14,130 nucleotides of DNA from the UHGV virus genome UHGV-0306157; one strand, written 5' to 3'. A program made the translations under genes and the position numbers. The notes beneath the pieces were generated by a model that saw only the letters and a program-made list of their open reading frames with translations, ran no database searches and was not told the origin of the DNA. This DNA is from a virus. Positions 267 to 7,999 of the stretch are shown piece after piece (positions within the stretch are counted from its first letter, which is position 1; each line of letters starts with the position of its first letter).

Positions 267-518
267 CTAACAGGATGCTCTGACTCGCAATTCATCCAGC
301 AGTTTATCATTTCCCATAATGTCACTTACCCTCATCGGTAAAAAAATTGCCTTTCGACCATTACGATACATCATTGATTTTGGGGTTTCAGAGAAGTAAT
401 CCATTTCGACTATAACTGACAGGTCATCACGACGTATGACTGCGTATTTGCTACTAAATAGTTTCTTTATTTTTTCCACGATGCCTCCAGGTTTATAAGT
501 ACAAACGGTTATATCCAC
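267..518 (-). CDS. hypothetical protein, 83 aa (weak call; possibly a fragment or frameshifted remnant together with ORF 98..325)
   Basis: Open frame from the six-frame track inside the AT-rich segment; GTG start with no Shine-Dalgarno; no recognisable motif; an out-of-frame ORF 98..325 overlaps it on the same strand. Confidence 0.25.
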   Translation of the reverse strand: MDITVCTYKPGGIVEKIKKLFSSKYAVIRRDDLSVIVEMDYFSETPKSMMYRNGRKAIFLPMRVSDIMGNDKLLDELRVRASC

Positions 519-754
519 ATAGAGACAAAAATATTAATCTGAAAAATATTTATTTCACGCCGTATATTTGATTGTTTAATGTGCAGGTACAATGACTTTT
601 ATTTTTTGTTGTGTATATAATCAAATATATGGTTATTTTTCACCCTGCGTATTCAGCGCGCAACAAAAAAACCGCCGAAACGGGTTAAGTGCGGGTGCGT
701 TGAGGATGCCTGACACATCAGAGGTGGCGAGGGATTTCTCCCTCGCCTGGTCTC

Positions 755-907
755 TTACTCCTCAGGTTCGTAAGCTGTGAAGACAGCGACCTCCGTCTGG
801 CCGGGTCGGATTCGTACCTCGCAGAGGTCTTTCCTCGTTACCAGTGCCGTCACTATGACGGTTAAACAGATGACGATCAGGGCGATTAACATCGTCTTTT
901 GCTGCAT
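755..907 (-). CDS. hokD: Hok/Gef-family type I toxin (small membrane peptide), HokD/RelF-like, 50 aa
   Basis: Hand translation of the minus strand gives MQQKTMLIALIVICLTVIVTALVTRKDLCEVRIRPGQTEVAVFTAYEPEE: one hydrophobic helix followed by the TRKDLCEV...GQTEVAVF..YE signature of Hok/Gef peptides, closest to my recollection of HokD(RelF). Absent from the ORF track because it is under 60 aa. In-frame GTG at 910 is an alternative start. Confidence 0.8.
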   Translation of the reverse strand: MQQKTMLIALIVICLTVIVTALVTRKDLCEVRIRPGQTEVAVFTAYEPEE

Positions 908-921
908 CACAGCCTACTTAC

Positions 922-957
922 CCTTACCTTTCGTTCAAGCGGTAAGGTCACTTTTTC
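922..957 (+). terminator. intrinsic-terminator-like hairpin; candidate 3' end of a Sok-like antisense RNA opposite the hok leader
   Basis: 7-bp inverted repeat CCTTACC (922-928) / GGTAAGG (941-947) with 12-nt loop, followed by TCACTTTTTCTGTT; lies antisense to the region just upstream of the hok start; preceded by tandem CTTACC CTTACC. Confidence 0.4.
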
Positions 958-1057
958 TGTTATGTGCTAACTAACAAACCTCTTTTATCTGCATTAAAAA
1001 TCGCTATCATGTGTCATCCTCAACCTGTTAATAGCCTATTATGGACTTTAGTAAACA

Positions 1058-2887
1058 ATGAGCACTTCCGCATACAAGAGCAAAATTCGAACACTCCAGT
1101 GCGCGTTAAAAAACGGTGAATTTGAACCATTCATACAACATATCCGTTTTCCATACTTTAAAAATATAGAGCAGAATGCAAGGATCGATTTTCAGTTCCC
1201 TATAACGGCTTTAGTAGGAAAAAATGGAACTAATAAAAGTTCTGTTATCAAAGCGCTATTTGGTTGCCCACATGGTAAAAATATAACTCGTTATTGGTTC
1301 ACAACTGAAACAGATGAGTTTCCTGACCTAAAACTTGCTGATGGCAGTTCTCTTAAACCTAGATATATATATGGATATAAAAATGCTGATGGCCGTTTAG
1401 TTGAAATACTCCAAGCGCGTATCAATGCTACCAAGAAAACAATCGATTATTGGGAAACAAGTCGACCATCTGTTGGTGATAACATGGAGAGTATTTCGGA
1501 TGATCTGGGTGCTAATAGTAATGCAACCAGATGGAAAAAAATCAAGAAGGGATTGGTTTTCCTAGATTTCAGATCGGAAATAAGTGCATTTGATAGATGT
1601 ATGTATCACTCTGATTTTAAATTAAGAAAGAAGAAGAGCGGTGTATTAATTACAAAGCAAGACTATATCAGAAGCAAATCTAAATATATAAAGAAAGCTT
1701 TTGATGAAAAGCTAAGTAATTTAAGACTTTGGGGGACGGAAACCATTGTTAAAAATATAATCTTGGCGCCAGAACTAGTTGAGCACGTCTCATTTATATT
1801 AGGGAAAAAATATAAAGTCATTAAATTTCTTGAGCATCGGTTATTTGGAACCAGAGGAGGAACCGCTTTACTTTCAACTGATAAGTTGAACTATACAGAA
1901 GCTTTTGCTGGAAGTGGTGAATTTGCAATAGTTTCACTAATACTCAATATTTATTCGGCCAAACCTAATTCATTAATTCTTCTTGACGAACCAGAAGTTT
2001 CACTTCACCCTGGTGCACAGAAAAGGATGATGGATGTTCTGTACTCTATTGTTGAGCAGAAAAAACATCAAGTGGTAATATCAACCCATTCTCCTGTTAT
2101 TGTGAACACTCTTCCCAAAGATGCCATTAAATTATTTGTTTTTGATGAAGAGAATGAAACAGCTAAAATAGTTCAAAATATAGCACCGGATGAAGCTTTT
2201 ATAGAGCTAGGGCATGATATTAACAAGAAAACAATAATTGTAGAAGATAAATTAGCTAAAGCAATTATAGATAAAGCGATTAAAAATGATGAAAGATTAA
2301 GCTTATCATTTAGTGTAAGTTATATACCAGGTGGTTCGGAGACCATTTTAAGCAAGCATCTTCCCAGTTACGCTGTGGTAGAACGCAATGATATTTTGTT
2401 TTTACTTGATGGTGATAAAAACAAAAAAATAAAACCAGTAAGAATTAGTGAAATTGCTGATGCTGATTTAGTTAATACAATGTGCAAATATTATGGTTGC
2501 GAGTTAATTATCAATGCCAGTGGTAGTAATGGCAAAAAAAATGAACAAGAATCTAATAGACTCAAAAGGCAAGTGCTTGAGTATGCATTCAATAAAGTGC
2601 AGTATTTACCATTTGATACTCCCGAACAATTACTCATTGAAAAGGCAATTACGCCAAGTGAAAAAGAAATAATTGATTCACAGACCTGGAGTTCTAATGA
2701 TCCAGAACTGTATAAGAATCAAATAAGATTATTAGCGCAACACCTGTATGATAAAGAAGAAGTAAATGCAGAGGAGATTTTTTGCATCCAAAAAATAATG
2801 ACCGCAAGACTTAAAAATGAATTGCCTGAATTTATAAAAATAAGAAAAATAATTACTCAGGCTCTTGACCGTGGTATCATTAGGTAG
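1058..2887 (+). CDS. ABC-type (SMC/RecF/OLD-like, AAA_21-like) ATPase with putative C-terminal TOPRIM-like nuclease domain, 609 aa
   Basis: Long ORF. P-loop VGKNGTNKSS (nt 1217-1240, deviant: N in place of the Gly before Lys); signature-like AGSGE; Walker B LILLDEPEVSLHP (Asp at 1985-1987); H-loop ISTHSP. C-terminal part has IIVEDK (Glu at 2243-2245) and LLDGDKN (DGD at 2408-2416) about 55 aa apart, compatible with TOPRIM Glu + DxD. Strongly AT-rich relative to flanking prophage genes. Confidence 0.8.
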   Translation: MSTSAYKSKIRTLQCALKNGEFEPFIQHIRFPYFKNIEQNARIDFQFPITALVGKNGTNKSSVIKALFGCPHGKNITRYWFTTETDEFPDLKLADGSSLKPRYIYGYKNADGRLVEILQARINATKKTIDYWETSRPSVGDNMESISDDLGANSNATRWKKIKKGLVFLDFRSEISAFDRCMYHSDFKLRKKKSGVLITKQDYIRSKSKYIKKAFDEKLSNLRLWGTETIVKNIILAPELVEHVSFILGKKYKVIKFLEHRLFGTRGGTALLSTDKLNYTEAFAGSGEFAIVSLILNIYSAKPNSLILLDEPEVSLHPGAQKRMMDVLYSIVEQKKHQVVISTHSPVIVNTLPKDAIKLFVFDEENETAKIVQNIAPDEAFIELGHDINKKTIIVEDKLAKAIIDKAIKNDERLSLSFSVSYIPGGSETILSKHLPSYAVVERNDILFLLDGDKNKKIKPVRISEIADADLVNTMCKYYGCELIINASGSNGKKNEQESNRLKRQVLEYAFNKVQYLPFDTPEQLLIEKAITPSEKEIIDSQTWSSNDPELYKNQIRLLAQHLYDKEEVNAEEIFCIQKIMTARLKNELPEFIKIRKIITQALDRGIIR

Positions 2888-2910
2888 TGATTCTGGATGC
2901 AGAGGGAAAA

Positions 2911-3951
2911 ATGAAAAAAATCAAAGTGTTTGACTTCTTTTCCGGTTGTGGTGGAACCAGCCAAGGTTTCCATCAAGCTGGAATGGATATTGTTTTTGGC
3001 CTCGATTTCGACGTTGATGCAGCCAGTTCATTTCGTGCAAATTTCCCGCAGGCTGCTTTTATTAACTCGGACATTAGGTTAATCGACAACAATGCCATAA
3101 ACAAGTTAGTAAAAAAACATCGTAATGATTACATTCTTTTTTCAGGATGTGCGCCTTGTCAACCGTACTCTAAGCAAAACTCAAATAAAAAAAATGATGA
3201 TCCACGATTAGATCTATTAAAGGAATTCAGTCGTTTTGTAGAGCATTATATGCCTGATTTTATTTTTGTTGAAAACGTGCCAGGAATGCAAAAGTTTAAC
3301 AAAAATGAAGGAACATTCATGATGTTTTTAGAAATGCTTTCATCAAAGGGATATAGTGTAGATTATAAAGTAATGCCAGCTGCGTGGTACGGTGTACCAC
3401 AGACGCGAGAAAGATTAGTGCTCATTGCATCCAAGGATTTTTATGTCGCATTGCCTTCTCCTACACATGGGGTTGGAAATACTCCCTATTCAACAGTAAA
3501 GGACTGGATCGCTAATTTACCGAAGATAGAAGCAGGAGAAAAGCATAATAGTATTCCTGATCATGAAGCTGCACGCTTATCAGAGCTTAATTTGCGTAGA
3601 ATAAAATGCACTCCTGAAGGTGGAAGTCGAGAATTTTGGCCAGATGAATTGATTTTAGAATGCCATCGTAACCATAAAGGGCATACAGACGTATATGGAC
3701 GTTTGAGTTGGGACAAACCAGCCAGCGGACTAACAACTCGTTGTATTAGCTATTCAAATGGACGTTTTGGACATCCAACACAAAATCGAGCAATATCGGT
3801 TCGTGAAGCAGCGTGTCTACAAACATTTCCTTTGGATTATAAATTTATTGGTTCTTTGCAATCTCGGGCTCGTCAAATAGGAAATGCGGTCCCTCCGAAG
3901 ATGTCTGAAACGATTGGAAAACATTTGCTTAATATAATCAAAGCCTCCTAG
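2911..3951 (+). CDS. DNA (cytosine-5)-methyltransferase, 346 aa, all catalytic motifs present
   Basis: Motif I FSGCGG, motif IV GCAPCQPYS (catalytic Cys), motif VI ENVPGM, motif VIII QTRERLVLI, motif IX ISVREAACLQTFP, motif X GNAVPP, with a variable region between VIII and IX. ATG at 2911 preceded by GAGGG (2902-2906); the track start at GTG 2887 overlaps the ATPase stop. 23-nt gap to the upstream ATPase gene implies an operon. Confidence 0.9.
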   Translation: MKKIKVFDFFSGCGGTSQGFHQAGMDIVFGLDFDVDAASSFRANFPQAAFINSDIRLIDNNAINKLVKKHRNDYILFSGCAPCQPYSKQNSNKKNDDPRLDLLKEFSRFVEHYMPDFIFVENVPGMQKFNKNEGTFMMFLEMLSSKGYSVDYKVMPAAWYGVPQTRERLVLIASKDFYVALPSPTHGVGNTPYSTVKDWIANLPKIEAGEKHNSIPDHEAARLSELNLRRIKCTPEGGSREFWPDELILECHRNHKGHTDVYGRLSWDKPASGLTTRCISYSNGRFGHPTQNRAISVREAACLQTFPLDYKFIGSLQSRARQIGNAVPPKMSETIGKHLLNIIKAS

Positions 3952-5202: not shown

Positions 5203-5949
5203 TTACTTCGCAATTCCTGGCTGGACGACATTCGGACGCCAGCTCTCCCAGTTAAAATTCACCCAACGCCCGCCGTTCATGGTCATGCGATCCATAATCC
5301 TCTCGCCGAGCAATGGTTTCATGGCCTCATAGTTCAGGTTTGTCAGCATTCCCACGCTACGCATCGACGCTGTCCGTCGATCAATAATCTGGTGCAGTAC
5401 CACCTGCTCGTTTTTCGTCTCGCGCTGAATGCCAATTTCATCAAGAACCAGCAGATCCACTTCGCACAGCTCCCGCAAAAATTTTTCGCCTGACTGCCCG
5501 TCGTCATAGCTGGCGTGCAGGGCGCTCATAACATCAGCCACGGTAACCACAATCACTGTCTGACCGTCTTTCAGCAGGCGATTCCCGATAGCTGCCGCTA
5601 AGTGATTCTTCCCGGTACCAGGTTTTCCGCTGAACGCAAAATTTGTACACCCGGTCATCAGTTCATCGGCGATGGATTTCGCCTGGCTTAACGCGTATCG
5701 CTGCCCTTCGTTCTGCACCTGGTAATTCGCAAACGAGCATTTGCGGTGCAACGGCTGGATGCCAGAGCGATTCAGGATTTTTTCCACCCGCAACTGACGA
5801 TTCAGGCGGTTGATCTCCTCGCAACGTTTCTGGCCTTCAGCAAGTTGCCACTCGCGCCACTCCGCAACCGTTCTGAATGGGGCGGTTACATGTGGTGGGG
5901 TCAGTCTGCGGATACGCTCCAGAACGCCTCCTGTCGCAATATTTTTCAT
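5203..5949 (-). CDS. ydaV: DnaC-like replicative helicase loader (phage P-like replication protein), 248 aa
   Basis: Walker [22 protein letters not shown] and Walker [11 protein letters not shown]; near collinear resemblance to the E. coli DnaC AAA+ domain as I recall it; lies directly downstream of the O-like gene. Confidence 0.85.
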
Positions 5950-5955
5950 GGCCTG

Positions 5956-6744
5956 TTACCCCCTGAAGCCTGGCGGGATCGCACTGTCCGGCAACGAGAC
6001 GGTGTTAACCTGTCGGAGCAACGTCTCAGGCCGAACACCTTTCGGCGCGAACAGGCCCTGGTATTCATTGGCGATACTGTGTCGAATCACCTGCTCAGGT
6101 GTAAAACCCTGCTGGCGGAATTTTTCCAGCTCCCGTATCGCCCAGTTAGCGCCCTGCTCCGTTCGAATCGGTTTTCGCAATGCCTGCCTGAACCGGACCC
6201 ACTCATGCCAGAGTGTTTCCGGCAACCAATCGGGCAGCTCAATAGCCTCCGGCTCAAATTTTTTAGACGCTCGTTTTTGGCGAGGGGGATTTAGGGGGAG
6301 ATCAGTATTTATATCTTCCTCTTCCTCTTCCTCTGGTAACGCTTTTTGATCCATTTGTGTAACGCTGCCAGCGTTACCTTTTCGTTTCAGTTCGCGTATT
6401 TTTGTAACTCGCTCGTTTGTAACCGCCCGTTTTTTAGAGCTTTTCCCGTTATGACGTTCAAAGTTAGGTAGAGAAAGCCCACCGTCATTTTCGACCAGCC
6501 ATCCAACCTGAATTAACGCATCAGCAAAACCAGCCATAAAAGTGATGCGATCTATTGCACTTTTTGTAACGCCGCGAGCGTTACAATCTGCATTACCGTC
6601 TATCATTTGTTGATCCGCCCATGCCCAGAAGCGAATAACCTTCCCTAATGCGGCATCTGGATCAATATTCAGAATCTCAGCAAGCCTGAATATTTCCGGC
6701 TTATCCGGCGTAATAACCTCGAGCTTTATCCAGTTTGAAGCCAT
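5956..6744 (-). CDS. ydaU: phage replication initiation protein (lambda O-like, YdaU/DUF1376-type), 262 aa
   Basis: Position immediately upstream of the dnaC-like gene in a lambdoid replication module; acidic poly-Glu linker (EEEEEED); iteron-like palindromes embedded mid-gene; AGGTGA RBS upstream of the ATG at 6744. Confidence 0.6.
   Translation of the reverse strand: MASNWIKLEVITPDKPEIFRLAEILNIDPDAALGKVIRFWAWADQQMIDGNADCNARGVTKSAIDRITFMAGFADALIQVGWLVENDGGLSLPNFERHNGKSSKKRAVTNERVTKIRELKRKGNAGSVTQMDQKALPEEEEEEDINTDLPLNPPRQKRASKKFEPEAIELPDWLPETLWHEWVRFRQALRKPIRTEQGANWAIRELEKFRQQGFTPEQVIRHSIANEYQGLFAPKGVRPETLLRQVNTVSLPDSAIPPGFRG
6336..6423. repeat. cluster of GTAACGC-type repeats inside the O-like gene (candidate origin iterons)
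   Basis: Half-site GTAACGCT at 6336-6343; 19-bp perfect palindrome GTAACGCTG-C-CAGCGTTAC at 6359-6377; direct repeats TTGTAAC at 6402-6408 and 6417-6423; adjacent polypyrimidine tract at 6311-6333. Confidence 0.5.
6564..6586. repeat. palindrome TTGTAACGC-N5-GCGTTACAA (second copy of the GTAACGC inverted repeat)
   Basis: Perfect 9-bp arms read directly from the sequence; lies within the O-like coding region. Confidence 0.5.
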
Positions 6745-6756
6745 TTGTTTTCACCT

Positions 6757-6777
6757 TGTAACGCTCGCAGCGTTACA
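6757..6777. repeat. palindrome TGTAACGCT-N3-AGCGTTACA (third copy, noncoding, just upstream of the ydaU start/RBS)
   Basis: Perfect 9-bp arms; located in the ydaT-ydaU intergenic spacer 6745-6821, about 15 nt upstream of the AGGTGA RBS. Confidence 0.5.
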
Positions 6778-6821
6778 TTTAACTGATACCGAACAAAACA
6801 ATCCGGCACGATTAATTTCAA

Positions 6822-7244
6822 TCAATGCACTACGACAGAATCGCCGGGCGACCCACCACCGCTGAAATGTGCTTTCCGGTAAACGGCCTGGACTGCATCA
6901 TCATGCGCATCAATTGCCGTACTCAACGCTTCCTGCGCCGCCAGTAATGCACGGCGTTCCAAGGTATCGAAGATGCAGAGTCGGTGACGCAGCTCGCGCG
7001 GAAGAATTGCCAGAACCGCAGGGATCAGTTTCTGAATTTTTTCCCTTTGCGCTTTCGTTTCACCTTTCAACCAACGGTGATAGATATTCTGCTGATTGTT
7101 CCAGTCCTTGCCTGGTACAAGGGGCAATTCGCCGCCCCCCTGGCGCAGATATTCTTCAGTAATTGCGTTAGCGACCCACGCCTGCCCTTTTTCGGCTGCC
7201 AGGGCTAACAACACTGATTCGATGTGCTCATGCCTGATTTTCAT
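6822..7244 (-). CDS. ydaT: YdaT-family protein (Rac prophage; reported toxic partner of YdaS / CII-like regulator), 140 aa
   Basis: 140-aa ORF whose sequence (MKIRHEHIESVLLALAAEKGQAWVANAITEEYLRQGGGELPLV...) matches my recollection of K-12 YdaT; its start overlaps the ydaS stop by ATGA, implying translational coupling. Confidence 0.7.
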   Translation of the reverse strand: MKIRHEHIESVLLALAAEKGQAWVANAITEEYLRQGGGELPLVPGKDWNNQQNIYHRWLKGETKAQREKIQKLIPAVLAILPRELRHRLCIFDTLERRALLAAQEALSTAIDAHDDAVQAVYRKAHFSGGGSPGDSVVVH

Positions 7245-7483
7245 GAATCAACCGCTCCTATGCTGTTTTCGCTATGCTTACCGTCTGGGGGGAATACATC
7301 GTCAAGTCCACAATGAGCGCCAAGCCGATTAAGGGTAGAAACAATTTTTCTGCACTCCTCTAGTCCAGGGGTACGAAAATTTGCTTCGTAATTTGCCAGT
7401 CGGCTTTGTATCCACCCTAACTGAACAGCAAGTTGTCTTTGAGACAGCCCAAGCTGTTTTCGATATGTTGAAATTTTGTTCAT
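7241..7483 (-). CDS. ydaS: Cro-like HTH (XRE family) regulator, YdaS-like, 80 aa
   Basis: HTH motif LGLSQRQLAVQLGWIQSRLANYEAN; GGAGG RBS 6 nt upstream of the ATG at 7483; divergent from the repressor gene. Confidence 0.7.
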   Translation of the reverse strand: MNKISTYRKQLGLSQRQLAVQLGWIQSRLANYEANFRTPGLEECRKIVSTLNRLGAHCGLDDVFPPDGKHSENSIGAVDS

Positions 7484-7579
7484 TGAAAACCTCCGATGAC
7501 AATTTTAAACACATCTTGTGTTATATGGTCAAGCTGTTTTGTGTTTTATGTAAATCACGATTCGTGATACAAGGATGCA
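7484..7579. promoter_or_regulatory. divergent promoter/operator region between ydaS-like and racR-like genes (OR-like)
   Basis: 15-bp palindromes AACACAtctTGTGTT (7508-7522) and ATCACGattCGTGAT (7554-7568) plus half-site TGTGTT (7540-7545). Minus-strand promoter candidate: -35 TTGACC (complement of 7527-7532), 17-nt spacer, -10 TTTAAA (complement of 7504-7509); the first palindrome sits in the spacer/-10. Confidence 0.6.
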
Positions 7580-7999
7580 ATGGAAAAAGAAAACGAAAAA
7601 ATTGCCGCTAGTAGGCTCAATGACAAAATTGCAATGCGTCTTAAAGAGCGCAGGCAGAAGCTTGGTTTATCTCAAGGAAAACTTGCTGAAATCTGCGGAT
7701 GGACGCAATCGCGTATAGGTAACTATGAGGCGGGCAGCAGAAATGTTGGAGTGCATGACGCTGTCGTATTGGGAAAGGCACTTGGCATATCTCCTCCTGA
7801 GCTCCTCTTTGGAGAACAGGAATCTTCTGAATTGTGGTTAAATGAATCCCAACGAAAACTTCTTGAGTTGTTTAACCAGCTACCGGGCTCAGAACAACAA
7901 CGAATGATTGAGCTATTTGAAGTCCGGCTAAAAGAAATCGATGAGTATGTAGAAAAATATTTGAGAGGCAGGCTTAAAGATAATCCCCCACCGGAGTAA
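7580..7999 (+). CDS. racR: prophage repressor, HTH XRE family (RacR/cI-like), 139 aa
   Basis: HTH LGLSQGKLAEICGWTQSRIGNYEAGSRN near the N-terminus with a C-terminal extension; divergent from the Cro-like gene; AAGGA RBS; followed by a strong terminator. Confidence 0.6.
   Translation: MEKENEKIAASRLNDKIAMRLKERRQKLGLSQGKLAEICGWTQSRIGNYEAGSRNVGVHDAVVLGKALGISPPELLFGEQESSELWLNESQRKLLELFNQLPGSEQQRMIELFEVRLKEIDEYVEKYLRGRLKDNPPPE

Follow-up and report, generated by a model that had tools for sequence, protein, structure and literature searches.

A probable replication origin inside the initiator gene of a Rac-like Escherichia coli prophage, indicated by conserved inverted repeats

The 14,130-nucleotide (nt) stretch of UHGV virus genome UHGV-0306157 analyzed here, hereafter the window, is a Rac-like lambdoid prophage of Escherichia coli. 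We examined its replication initiator gene, which encodes 262 amino acids (aa) on the minus strand (5956..6744), together with a set of inverted repeats in and immediately upstream of that gene that are candidate elements of a replication origin. The gene product matched PHROG 2509, annotated as 'replication initiation protein', with an expect value (E) of 5e-89. Its downstream partner is ydaV, a DnaC-like helicase loader gene (5203..5949, minus strand) with matches to Pfam IstB_IS21 and Bac_DnaA and to PHROG 50, 'DnaC-like helicase loader'. From AlphaFold2 models, the initiator is predicted to comprise an N-terminal winged-helix-like domain (N-domain, aa 1 to ~121), an acidic linker, and a C-terminal domain.

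Three exact matches to GTAACGC-N5-GCGTTAC (GTAACGCNNNNNGCGTTAC) were present in the 14,130-bp window, at 6359-6377, 6566-6584, and 6758-6776, and no further match was found there even when two mismatches were allowed. Because the chance expectation was 0.02, and none of 200 dinucleotide shuffles reached three, chance occurrence is excluded. With flanking bases included, the arms are 9 bp long and enclose spacers of 1, 5, and 3 nt, at 6359-6377, 6564-6586, and 6757-6777, respectively. The same arms and coordinates had been given in a preliminary description of this DNA, made from the sequence alone, and the approximate 200-bp spacing reported there was measured as 207 and 192 bp between centers. 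Site 0 (TGTAACGCT-CGC-AGCGTTACA, 6757..6777) is non-coding, lies 14 nt upstream of the ATG, and directly abuts the Shine-Dalgarno sequence AAGGTG. Site 1 (TTGTAACGC-CGCGA-GCGTTACAA, 6564..6586) is within the stretch coding for the N-domain, where it specifies CNARGVT in a predicted loop, and the central palindrome of site 2 (GTAACGCTG-C-CAGCGTTAC, 6359..6377) is at the end of that region and encodes GNAGSVT. The translation of 5956-6744 reads ...DCNARGVTK... and ...KGNAGSVTQ... at the two coding copies, so both peptides, and the position of the third copy outside the coding sequence beside the ribosome-binding site, were as first described.

Reading along the gene strand from site 2, the order of elements is GTAACGCTGGCAGCGTTAC (6377-6359), 16 nt, a terminal half-site GCGTTACC (6342-6335), AGAGGAAGAGGAAGAGGAAGA (6334-6314), TATAAATACTGATC (6313-6300), and CCCCCTAAATCCCCC (6298-6284). 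The terminal half-site (6335..6342) directly abuts AGAGGAAGAGGAAGAGGAAGA, a 21-nt polypurine tract (6314..6334, minus strand) that encodes the acidic linker EEEEEED and is a candidate DNA-unwinding element. The tract is adjoined by an AT-rich segment (6300..6313) containing a GATC, and then by a C5-TAAAT-C5 element (6284..6298) at the boundary of the shared C-terminal module discussed below. Nearest-neighbor energies identify 6300-6339 as the gene's least stable 40-mer, and its GC content (0.375) is also the lowest in the gene. Additional GTAAC half-sites had been described as clustering in the codons of the acidic linker. Such 5-mers do occur, at 6336, 6404, and 6419, but they fall just upstream of the linker codons (6314-6334), and only 6336-6342 is a full GTAACGC half-site. 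The other two (6404..6425), GTAACTC (6404-6410) and GTAACCG (6419-6425), are weak or possibly vestigial; the equivalent of the former is a perfect GCGTTAC in the nearest Enterobacterales lineages (loci L060, L068, and L074) and is absent elsewhere. Both are degenerate and are not kept across the family.

Homologues were collected from annotated phages, from IMG/VR contigs, and from a set with one genome per species. In total, 160 related loci from these viral and genome collections were examined, with protein identities down to about 30-45%, from Enterobacterales, Pseudomonas, Xanthomonas, Ralstonia, Burkholderiales, Planctomycetota, Verrucomicrobiota, and others. A palindrome scan placed GTAACGC-N5-GCGTTAC at gene nt ~148-160 (site 1) in most homologues and the site 2 palindrome at gene nt ~337-391 in nearly all of them, with an identical placement of site 2 at the domain junction. 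The density of half-site 5-mers was 2.2 per locus between gene nt 100 and 200 and 3.2 per locus between nt 300 and 400, over a background of ~0.05 per 50 nt in the 1.5-kb flanks. At site 2, homologues carry one to four direct half-sites followed by one to three inverted ones, in arrays that total three to six, and neighboring half-sites are spaced by 12 bp (89 cases) or 11 bp (32 cases). Full palindromes were confined to the initiator gene or its vicinity in two complete phage genomes (37.8 and 44.8 kb). An upstream copy, or a small array, occurs in Rac-like, Serratia, Pantoea, Erwinia, Mixta, and Winslowiella lineages and in one Stenotrophomonas; between lineages its spacer differs and it lies anywhere from 14 to 25 nt from the ATG, and Pantoea-type loci have extra direct half-sites on its flanks. 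When checked as the preliminary description had suggested, homologues thus retained the nucleotide palindrome and not the peptide alone, and upstream non-coding copies recurred in several Enterobacterales lineages. Judged by sequence comparison, the same design appears again in thousands of related phage genes from several bacterial phyla, the palindrome scan itself covering the 160 loci. Four Verrucomicrobiota/Akkermansia loci (L106, L111, L123, and L124) are without the site 1 palindrome and at site 2 (gene nt ~345-395) have two overlapping palindromes, TGTAACGC-N5-GCGTTACAAATGTAACGC-N5-GCGTTA, as if the second cluster had shifted beside the first.

Codon usage at the sites was informative on what is conserved. 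In 41 non-redundant genes (<80% identity) encoding NAxxV(T/S) at site 1, the Asn codon was AAC and the Val codon GTT in every case (41/41 each), compared with 61% AAC and 32% GTT in the rest of the same genes, and the Ala codon was GCT in 34 of 41; synonymous sites should be saturated below 80% protein identity. Two reading frames are used at site 2, one yielding GNAxxVT (30 cases) and the other VTxxAL (15 cases). A comparison of 43 distinct close E. coli sequences showed no variation in the arms of sites 0 and 1, while the spacers of the three sites varied at 13 of their 15 positions; family-wide, identical arms were seen in 51 distinct 19-mers. These patterns, together with the non-coding copies, support selection acting on the DNA and not on a peptide repeat, as the preliminary description had proposed.

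Where the motif is altered, both arms change, and they do so at every site of a genome, tracking the clade of the N-domain. Locus L149 has GTTGCGC...GCGCAAC at both sites, with the peptide becoming GCAPSAT. In L148, the motif is GTCACGC...GCGTGAC, the peptide is GHAPSVT, and the Val codon becomes GTG, pairing with CAC. Ralstonia phage Raharianne has the half-site GTAGACG, and a clade comprising Pseudomonas phage phiPSA1 and Salmonella/Klebsiella Uetakeviruses (including SPN1S and BUCT711) has GTCCGC. Site 2 of this last clade is a strict ->(11)->(13)<-(11)<- array. A second such array lies at nt 54-106, a position unlike that of site 1 in the GTAACGC group, which indicates that the two-cluster design is kept even where the codons that host it are not.

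The polypurine tract is conserved alongside the sites. In homologues, GCGTTACC, the last of the inverted half-sites, runs directly into a polypurine tract, CC(A/T)AGAGAAGAGAAGAGAAGAGAAGA, and the junction GCGTTACC(A/T)AGAG... is kept across the family. The longest purine run had a median of 20.5 nt in 54 non-redundant homologues, against 10 in shuffled genes. Depending on lineage, the tract is translated in three frames, as PREEKRREE, PEKRREEK, or QRREEK, and its Arg codons are AGA in 77 of 77 cases versus 9% elsewhere, even in genomes of ~60% GC. TA-rich DNA usually comes after the tract. C-tract pairs related to the C5-TAAAT-C5 element come after the purine tract in K-12 ydaU and in 13 of 53 non-redundant homologues; at that frequency, we rejected the element as a universal part of the origin.

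The initiator itself matches no curated domain model. Although it had been labeled a 'ydaU' or O-like gene, it is a homologue of neither YdaU/DUF1376 nor lambda O. Its C-terminal domain is common to K-12 YdaU and the Gifsy O-like proteins: the last 124 aa are 80% identical to K-12 YdaU, with which it has nothing else in common, and 'O-like' PHROG 678 and the Gifsy O-like proteins are likewise matched by the C-terminal part only. A YdaU/DUF1376 identity was rejected since, despite the gene's ydaU position, there was no Pfam match and hhalign gave a probability of 0.2% for the N-domain against the K-12 YdaU N-terminus. Membership of the lambda O family (Pfam Phage_rep_O) was rejected as well, with no Pfam match to E 10 and no sequence relative in the PDB. 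More generally, a Pfam scan of the initiator returned no family even at E 10, an NCBIfam scan returned none and gave as its sole signal a faint match to the DnaT C-terminal tail, and RefSeq labels the 262-aa protein a hypothetical protein. An active Rac-like relative, vB_EcoS-673R7, encodes an initiator 95% identical to it. A profile of the N-domain found no relative among PDB sequences by hmmsearch. The predicted N-domain has a helix-helix-beta-hairpin core whose weak fold matches are mostly to winged-helix domains. In the AlphaFold2 model, the site 1 peptide is in a loop (aa 49-60) of low predicted local distance difference test score (pLDDT), while site 2 and the terminal half-site (6335-6377) correspond to aa 123-137, which come after the last N-domain helix (ending at aa 121) and before the C-terminal domain (from ~aa 160). 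The N-domain family is large, at 6,870 clusters (50% identity, E at most 1e-3), and no Pfam domain covered the N-terminal part among the family members listed.

The sites are real, are under selection at the DNA level, co-vary with the initiator lineage, and lie beside the least stable DNA of the gene. We consider it likely that the palindromes are bound by the initiator and that the origin of replication lies inside the initiator gene, with the distal palindromes as auxiliary sites. The best reading is a lambda-ori-like origin in the linker-coding region, with its core at about 6284-6425. This is where several features expected of an origin within an initiator gene come together: the sites are at the domain junction, the dyad is present in multiple copies, an easily melted AT-rich tract adjoins them, and the sites co-vary with the DNA-binding domain, both in the concerted switches by clade and in K-12, which differs in N-domain and repeats alike. 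The genes beside the initiator vary among homologues, encoding a DnaC-like protein, a DnaB-like protein, or no loader at all, and this leaves the initiator's N-domain as the only consistent candidate for the binding protein. The preliminary description had suggested origin iterons within the initiator gene. Initiator-binding origin elements are probably what these are, to judge from the sequence patterns, but the three spaced palindromes are not themselves an iteron array; the core would instead consist of the site 2 cluster, the terminal half-site at 6336-6342, and the polypurine/AT-rich tract.

What binds the sites, how the tract melts and the origin fires, and whether sites loop together we infer from this arrangement. 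A dimer of the initiator's N-terminal winged-helix-like domain would recognize TAACGC-N5-GCGTTA, with half-sites 12 bp apart. The origin would be the DNA encoding the junction of the initiator's two domains, made up of the array (6377-6335), the polypurine tract (6334-6314), and the AT-rich segment (6313-6300), and on binding to the array, the initiator would cause the low-stability tract beside it to distort and melt. Its C-terminal domain could then recruit the DnaC-like loader YdaV with host DnaB. The distal palindromes (6566-6584 and 6758-6776) may be auxiliary, looping to the core and raising the local concentration of initiator, or alternatively may exert feedback on initiator expression as roadblock or operator sites. 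We read sites 0 and 1 as auxiliary DNA sites of one of these kinds (looping, local concentration, or autoregulation by roadblock) because the hairpin at site 0 leaves the Shine-Dalgarno sequence free and no promoter or Rfam family was found there.

Several points weigh against an origin at this position. The window core has one full palindrome and one perfect half-site, fewer than the arrays of many homologues, and the palindrome spacing of ~200 bp is unlike the contiguous iterons of lambda. No DnaA box was found near the region, which we regard as neutral. GC skew in temperate phages chiefly follows the direction of transcription and is of limited use as a guide to origins. The compared sequences are phylogenetically related, so that counts such as 41/41 are not fully independent, and an element with a purely regulatory role would likewise be consistent with the conserved tract and sites. 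Finally, literature searches on the motif and related phages returned no report of binding or origin mapping for this family. Searches on oriJ, ydaU, DUF1376 with iterons, the motif strings, and related phages likewise returned no description of the sites, though subscription journals were thinly covered and an earlier description is possible.

Lambdoid O genes are known for swapping an N-domain together with its sites as a module, and the window and K-12 Rac differ from each other in just this manner. Further similarities to lambda are evident. In lambda, the inverted-repeat O sites are in the middle of the gene, with an unwound AT-rich tract on one side, and the O sites nearest that tract matter most (PMC7466680). 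Like lambda, the proposed origin is inside the initiator gene between the regions for DNA binding and partner binding, its initiator-binding sites would be inverted repeats with an AT-rich tract on one side, and a helicase-loader gene comes next. Unlike lambda, whose ori has four contiguous 19-bp iterons, it has 7-bp half-sites phased at 11-12 bp in a ->->-<-<- arrangement; it also has a second in-gene cluster ~200-300 bp away and, in some lineages, a third upstream. The candidate unwinding element also differs, being a nearly invariant (AGAGAAG)n or (GAGGAA)n polypurine tract found in clades of different site specificity, and the initiator has no sequence relationship to lambda O.

The comparison with the Rac prophage of K-12, which carries oriJ, revealed a shared framework with different specificity elements. 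The order racR, cro-like gene, ydaT, rep, and ydaV is the same in both, as is the DnaC-like loader. In the window, racR-like repressor, Cro-like helix-turn-helix, and CII-like ydaT genes lie at 7580-7999 (plus strand), 7241-7483 (minus strand), and 6822-7244 (minus strand), respectively, with recE and recT located further on, beyond ydaV. The N-domains, however, are unrelated, that of K-12 being DUF1376, and the K-12 repeats are TGTTCAAACA in contrast to GTAACGC. The linker region of K-12 ydaU has repeats, AT-rich DNA, and a C7-TAAAT-C7 element, followed by the shared C-terminal module. With both N-domain and repeats different, the window represents an alternative replication-specificity module, and knowledge of oriJ is not transferable to it. 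In K-12 MG1655 Rac (locus L015), the ydaU repeats at gene nt ~390-540 are GATGTTCAAACA, GGTGTTCAAACA, and an inverted GTGTTTGAACAT, followed by AT-rich, purine-rich DNA and CCCCCCCTAAATCCCCCCCGGGGG. This repeat region is a candidate for the sequence of oriJ.

Iteron plasmids provide a second comparison. In pSC101, F, P1, and R6K, a winged-helix Rep acts on repeated sites, with inverted half-sites near the start of rep serving autorepression and arrays beside an AT-rich element serving initiation; plasmid iterons are direct repeats of about 17-22 bp located outside the rep gene. The sites described here differ in being a mixture of direct and inverted half-sites inside coding sequence, with no promoter found overlapping the upstream palindrome. 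The N-domain module was present in 2 of 72,556 plasmid records, and inspection of one of them showed a phage-like circle of 41 kb, so that no small plasmid in this collection offers a natural minimal replicon. The examined record (L258; NC_015459.1, Pusillimonas sp. T7-7 'plasmid', 41,205 bp) comprises the complete genome of a temperate phage, including genes for integrase, capsid, tail, and lysis functions. The only replication genes evident in it encode a member of this initiator family and a DnaC-like ATPase. Its assembly as a free circle suggests an excised or extrachromosomally replicating phage.

We then weighed other explanations for the palindromes. The most serious is that they are operators only, through which the initiator or another regulator represses or roadblocks the rep-ydaV operon, with the origin elsewhere in the prophage. 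One copy is indeed just upstream beside the Shine-Dalgarno sequence and another is early in the coding region, and the inverted repeats bound by Rep dimers in iteron plasmids are autorepression operators. The upstream copy is also lineage-restricted, as accessory regulatory sites often are. However, no sigma-70-like promoter was predicted near that copy in a scan of 6200-7600, the best-conserved cluster (site 2) is 370 nt into the gene, and the two complete phage genomes contained no other repeat cluster of the motif. Moreover, an operator has no need of a conserved, least-stable polypurine/AT-rich tract, and a role as operators alone does not explain the DNA-level conservation of that tract. 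We consider this explanation unlikely.

Less probable again is that some protein other than the initiator binds the sites, whether a host factor or a neighboring phage product such as the CII-like YdaT, the Cro-like protein, or the DnaC-like loader. YdaT-type boxes are close by (6808-6825 and 7234-7251), but the YdaT box, TTGATT-N6-AATCAA, is unrelated to the motif (PMC9986795, PMC11879457), and across phyla the motif accompanies the initiator N-domain even as the neighboring genes change. A host factor also fits poorly with the observation that the same or closely related enteric hosts (Escherichia, Salmonella, Klebsiella) have GTAACGC or GTCCGC phages according to N-domain clade.

We assign still less weight to the palindromes being mRNA hairpins that control translation, RNase processing, or stability, as might apply in particular to the copy at the ribosome-binding site. 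That copy does fold as a 9-bp hairpin, and a 76-nt mRNA segment that includes it gave z = -2.5 versus shuffles, but the Shine-Dalgarno sequence is unpaired in the predicted fold and the distance to the palindrome varies from 14 to 25 nt by lineage. The preliminary description had offered a translational-control hairpin as an alternative, and on these two grounds we disfavor it. The arms are identical at all copies of a genome and a lineage switch changes every copy together, and such concerted identity points to a sequence-specific reader and not independent hairpins; the flanking direct-repeat half-sites, moreover, cannot pair. On the antisense (plus) strand, 6359-6377 plus CTTTTCGTTT fits a terminator-like pattern, but it is the sole match and the count of such patterns is within shuffle expectation. 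The promoter and terminator scan of 6200-7600 yielded nothing near the upstream palindrome, and Rfam gave no match in 5900-7600 at E up to 1, with one chance fragment of transfer-messenger RNA elsewhere.

A protein-level repeat, in which the peptide GNAxxVT is selected and the palindrome is a by-product, is very improbable: D-G-N-A-x-x-V-T is conserved at site 1 and both coding copies of the window share a frame, but the synonymous codons are fixed (AAC and GTT 41/41; GCT 34/41), site 2 encodes VTxxAL in a third of lineages, a non-coding copy exists, changes in the motif hit both arms and preserve the dyad (GCAPSAT; GHAPSVT with GTG), the peptide sits in a low-confidence predicted loop, and no homologue was seen to keep the peptide with scrambled codons.

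Returning to an origin bound by the initiator, a more elaborate version is conceivable, and we offer it tentatively. Here, a bipartite origin would lie in the coding sequence of a very large, Pfam-less family spanning Pseudomonadota, Planctomycetota, and Verrucomicrobiota, one recognition site would be set within the codons of the very DNA-binding domain that recognizes it and would dictate the peptide GNAxxVT, and the nearly invariant (AGAGAAG)n element would perhaps be read as single-stranded DNA by an F-x-R-H-N-G-x-S/T-A-K-x-R helix. This basic helix is nearly invariant, and it precedes the polypurine element, which clades of different site specificity have in common. If this is true, duplex recognition, which is variable, and melting, which is invariant, would be performed by separate parts of one small domain.

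An origin of lambda style within the initiator gene is a known kind of system; the one proposed here differs in its Pfam-less initiator family, its phased half-site arrays, its bipartite layout, and a polypurine element that is kept across phyla. For a replication module common in E. coli prophages, the analysis supplies a concrete origin and a recognition code that can be put to the test; the query region was matched in part in 2,578 of 5,426 complete genomes and over at least 80% of its length in 676. It also offers a clean case in which one stretch of DNA encodes protein and cis-element together and the constraint on codons can be measured: a short peptide and a linker, acidic or basic, look conserved because the DNA is the target of selection. 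The switches among GTAACGC, GTCCGC, GTAGACG, and GTTGCGC form a natural series for the evolution of initiator specificity, and half-site types could help to predict replication incompatibility or cross-activation between co-resident prophages. Annotation pipelines, which now return 'hypothetical protein' or 'YdaU', could name the gene and mark the origin.

Other features of the window were also noted. The putative origin core contains two GATC (Dam) sites, one at 6349-6352 between the central palindrome and the terminal half-site (TGGATCAAAAAGCGTTACC), which recurs in several related Enterobacterales lineages, and one at 6300-6303 at the end of the AT-rich segment. These hint at methylation or SeqA-type control. 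At ~500-3950, the window contains an AT-rich island with two abutting plus-strand genes (1058-3951), encoding a 609-aa OLD/PtuA/AriA-like ABC-type ATPase (best PADLOC match HEC-04, 4e-34) and a 354-aa C-5 cytosine DNA methyltransferase. All of the window's least stable 40-mers fall in this island, which looks like defense or methylation cargo; the closest annotated relative, from strain LWY24, has different cargo at this position.

Repeats of other kinds are present around the regulatory genes. The YdaT box is TTGATT-N6-AATCAA, and a YdaT tetramer can hold two sites (PMC9986795, PMC11879457). One YdaT-box-like repeat, at 6808-6825 (minus strand, TTGATT-GAAATT-AATCGT), is at the 3' end of ydaT and 32 nt upstream of site 0, and another, at 7234-7251 (minus strand, TTGATT-CATGAA-AATCAG), is over the ydaT start codon. 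Bracketing ydaT as they do, the two boxes could permit looping, and through the downstream box, YdaT might be connected with expression of the replication genes. Lastly, the intergenic region between racR and the cro-like gene (7450-7570) contains a perfect palindrome with 7-bp arms, ATCACGATTCGTGAT (7554-7568), and the direct repeats CAAGCTGTTTT (7450-7460 and 7530-7540) and TTGTGTTATATG/TTGTGTTTTATG (7516-7527 and 7539-7550), which are probably the operators of the immunity switch.

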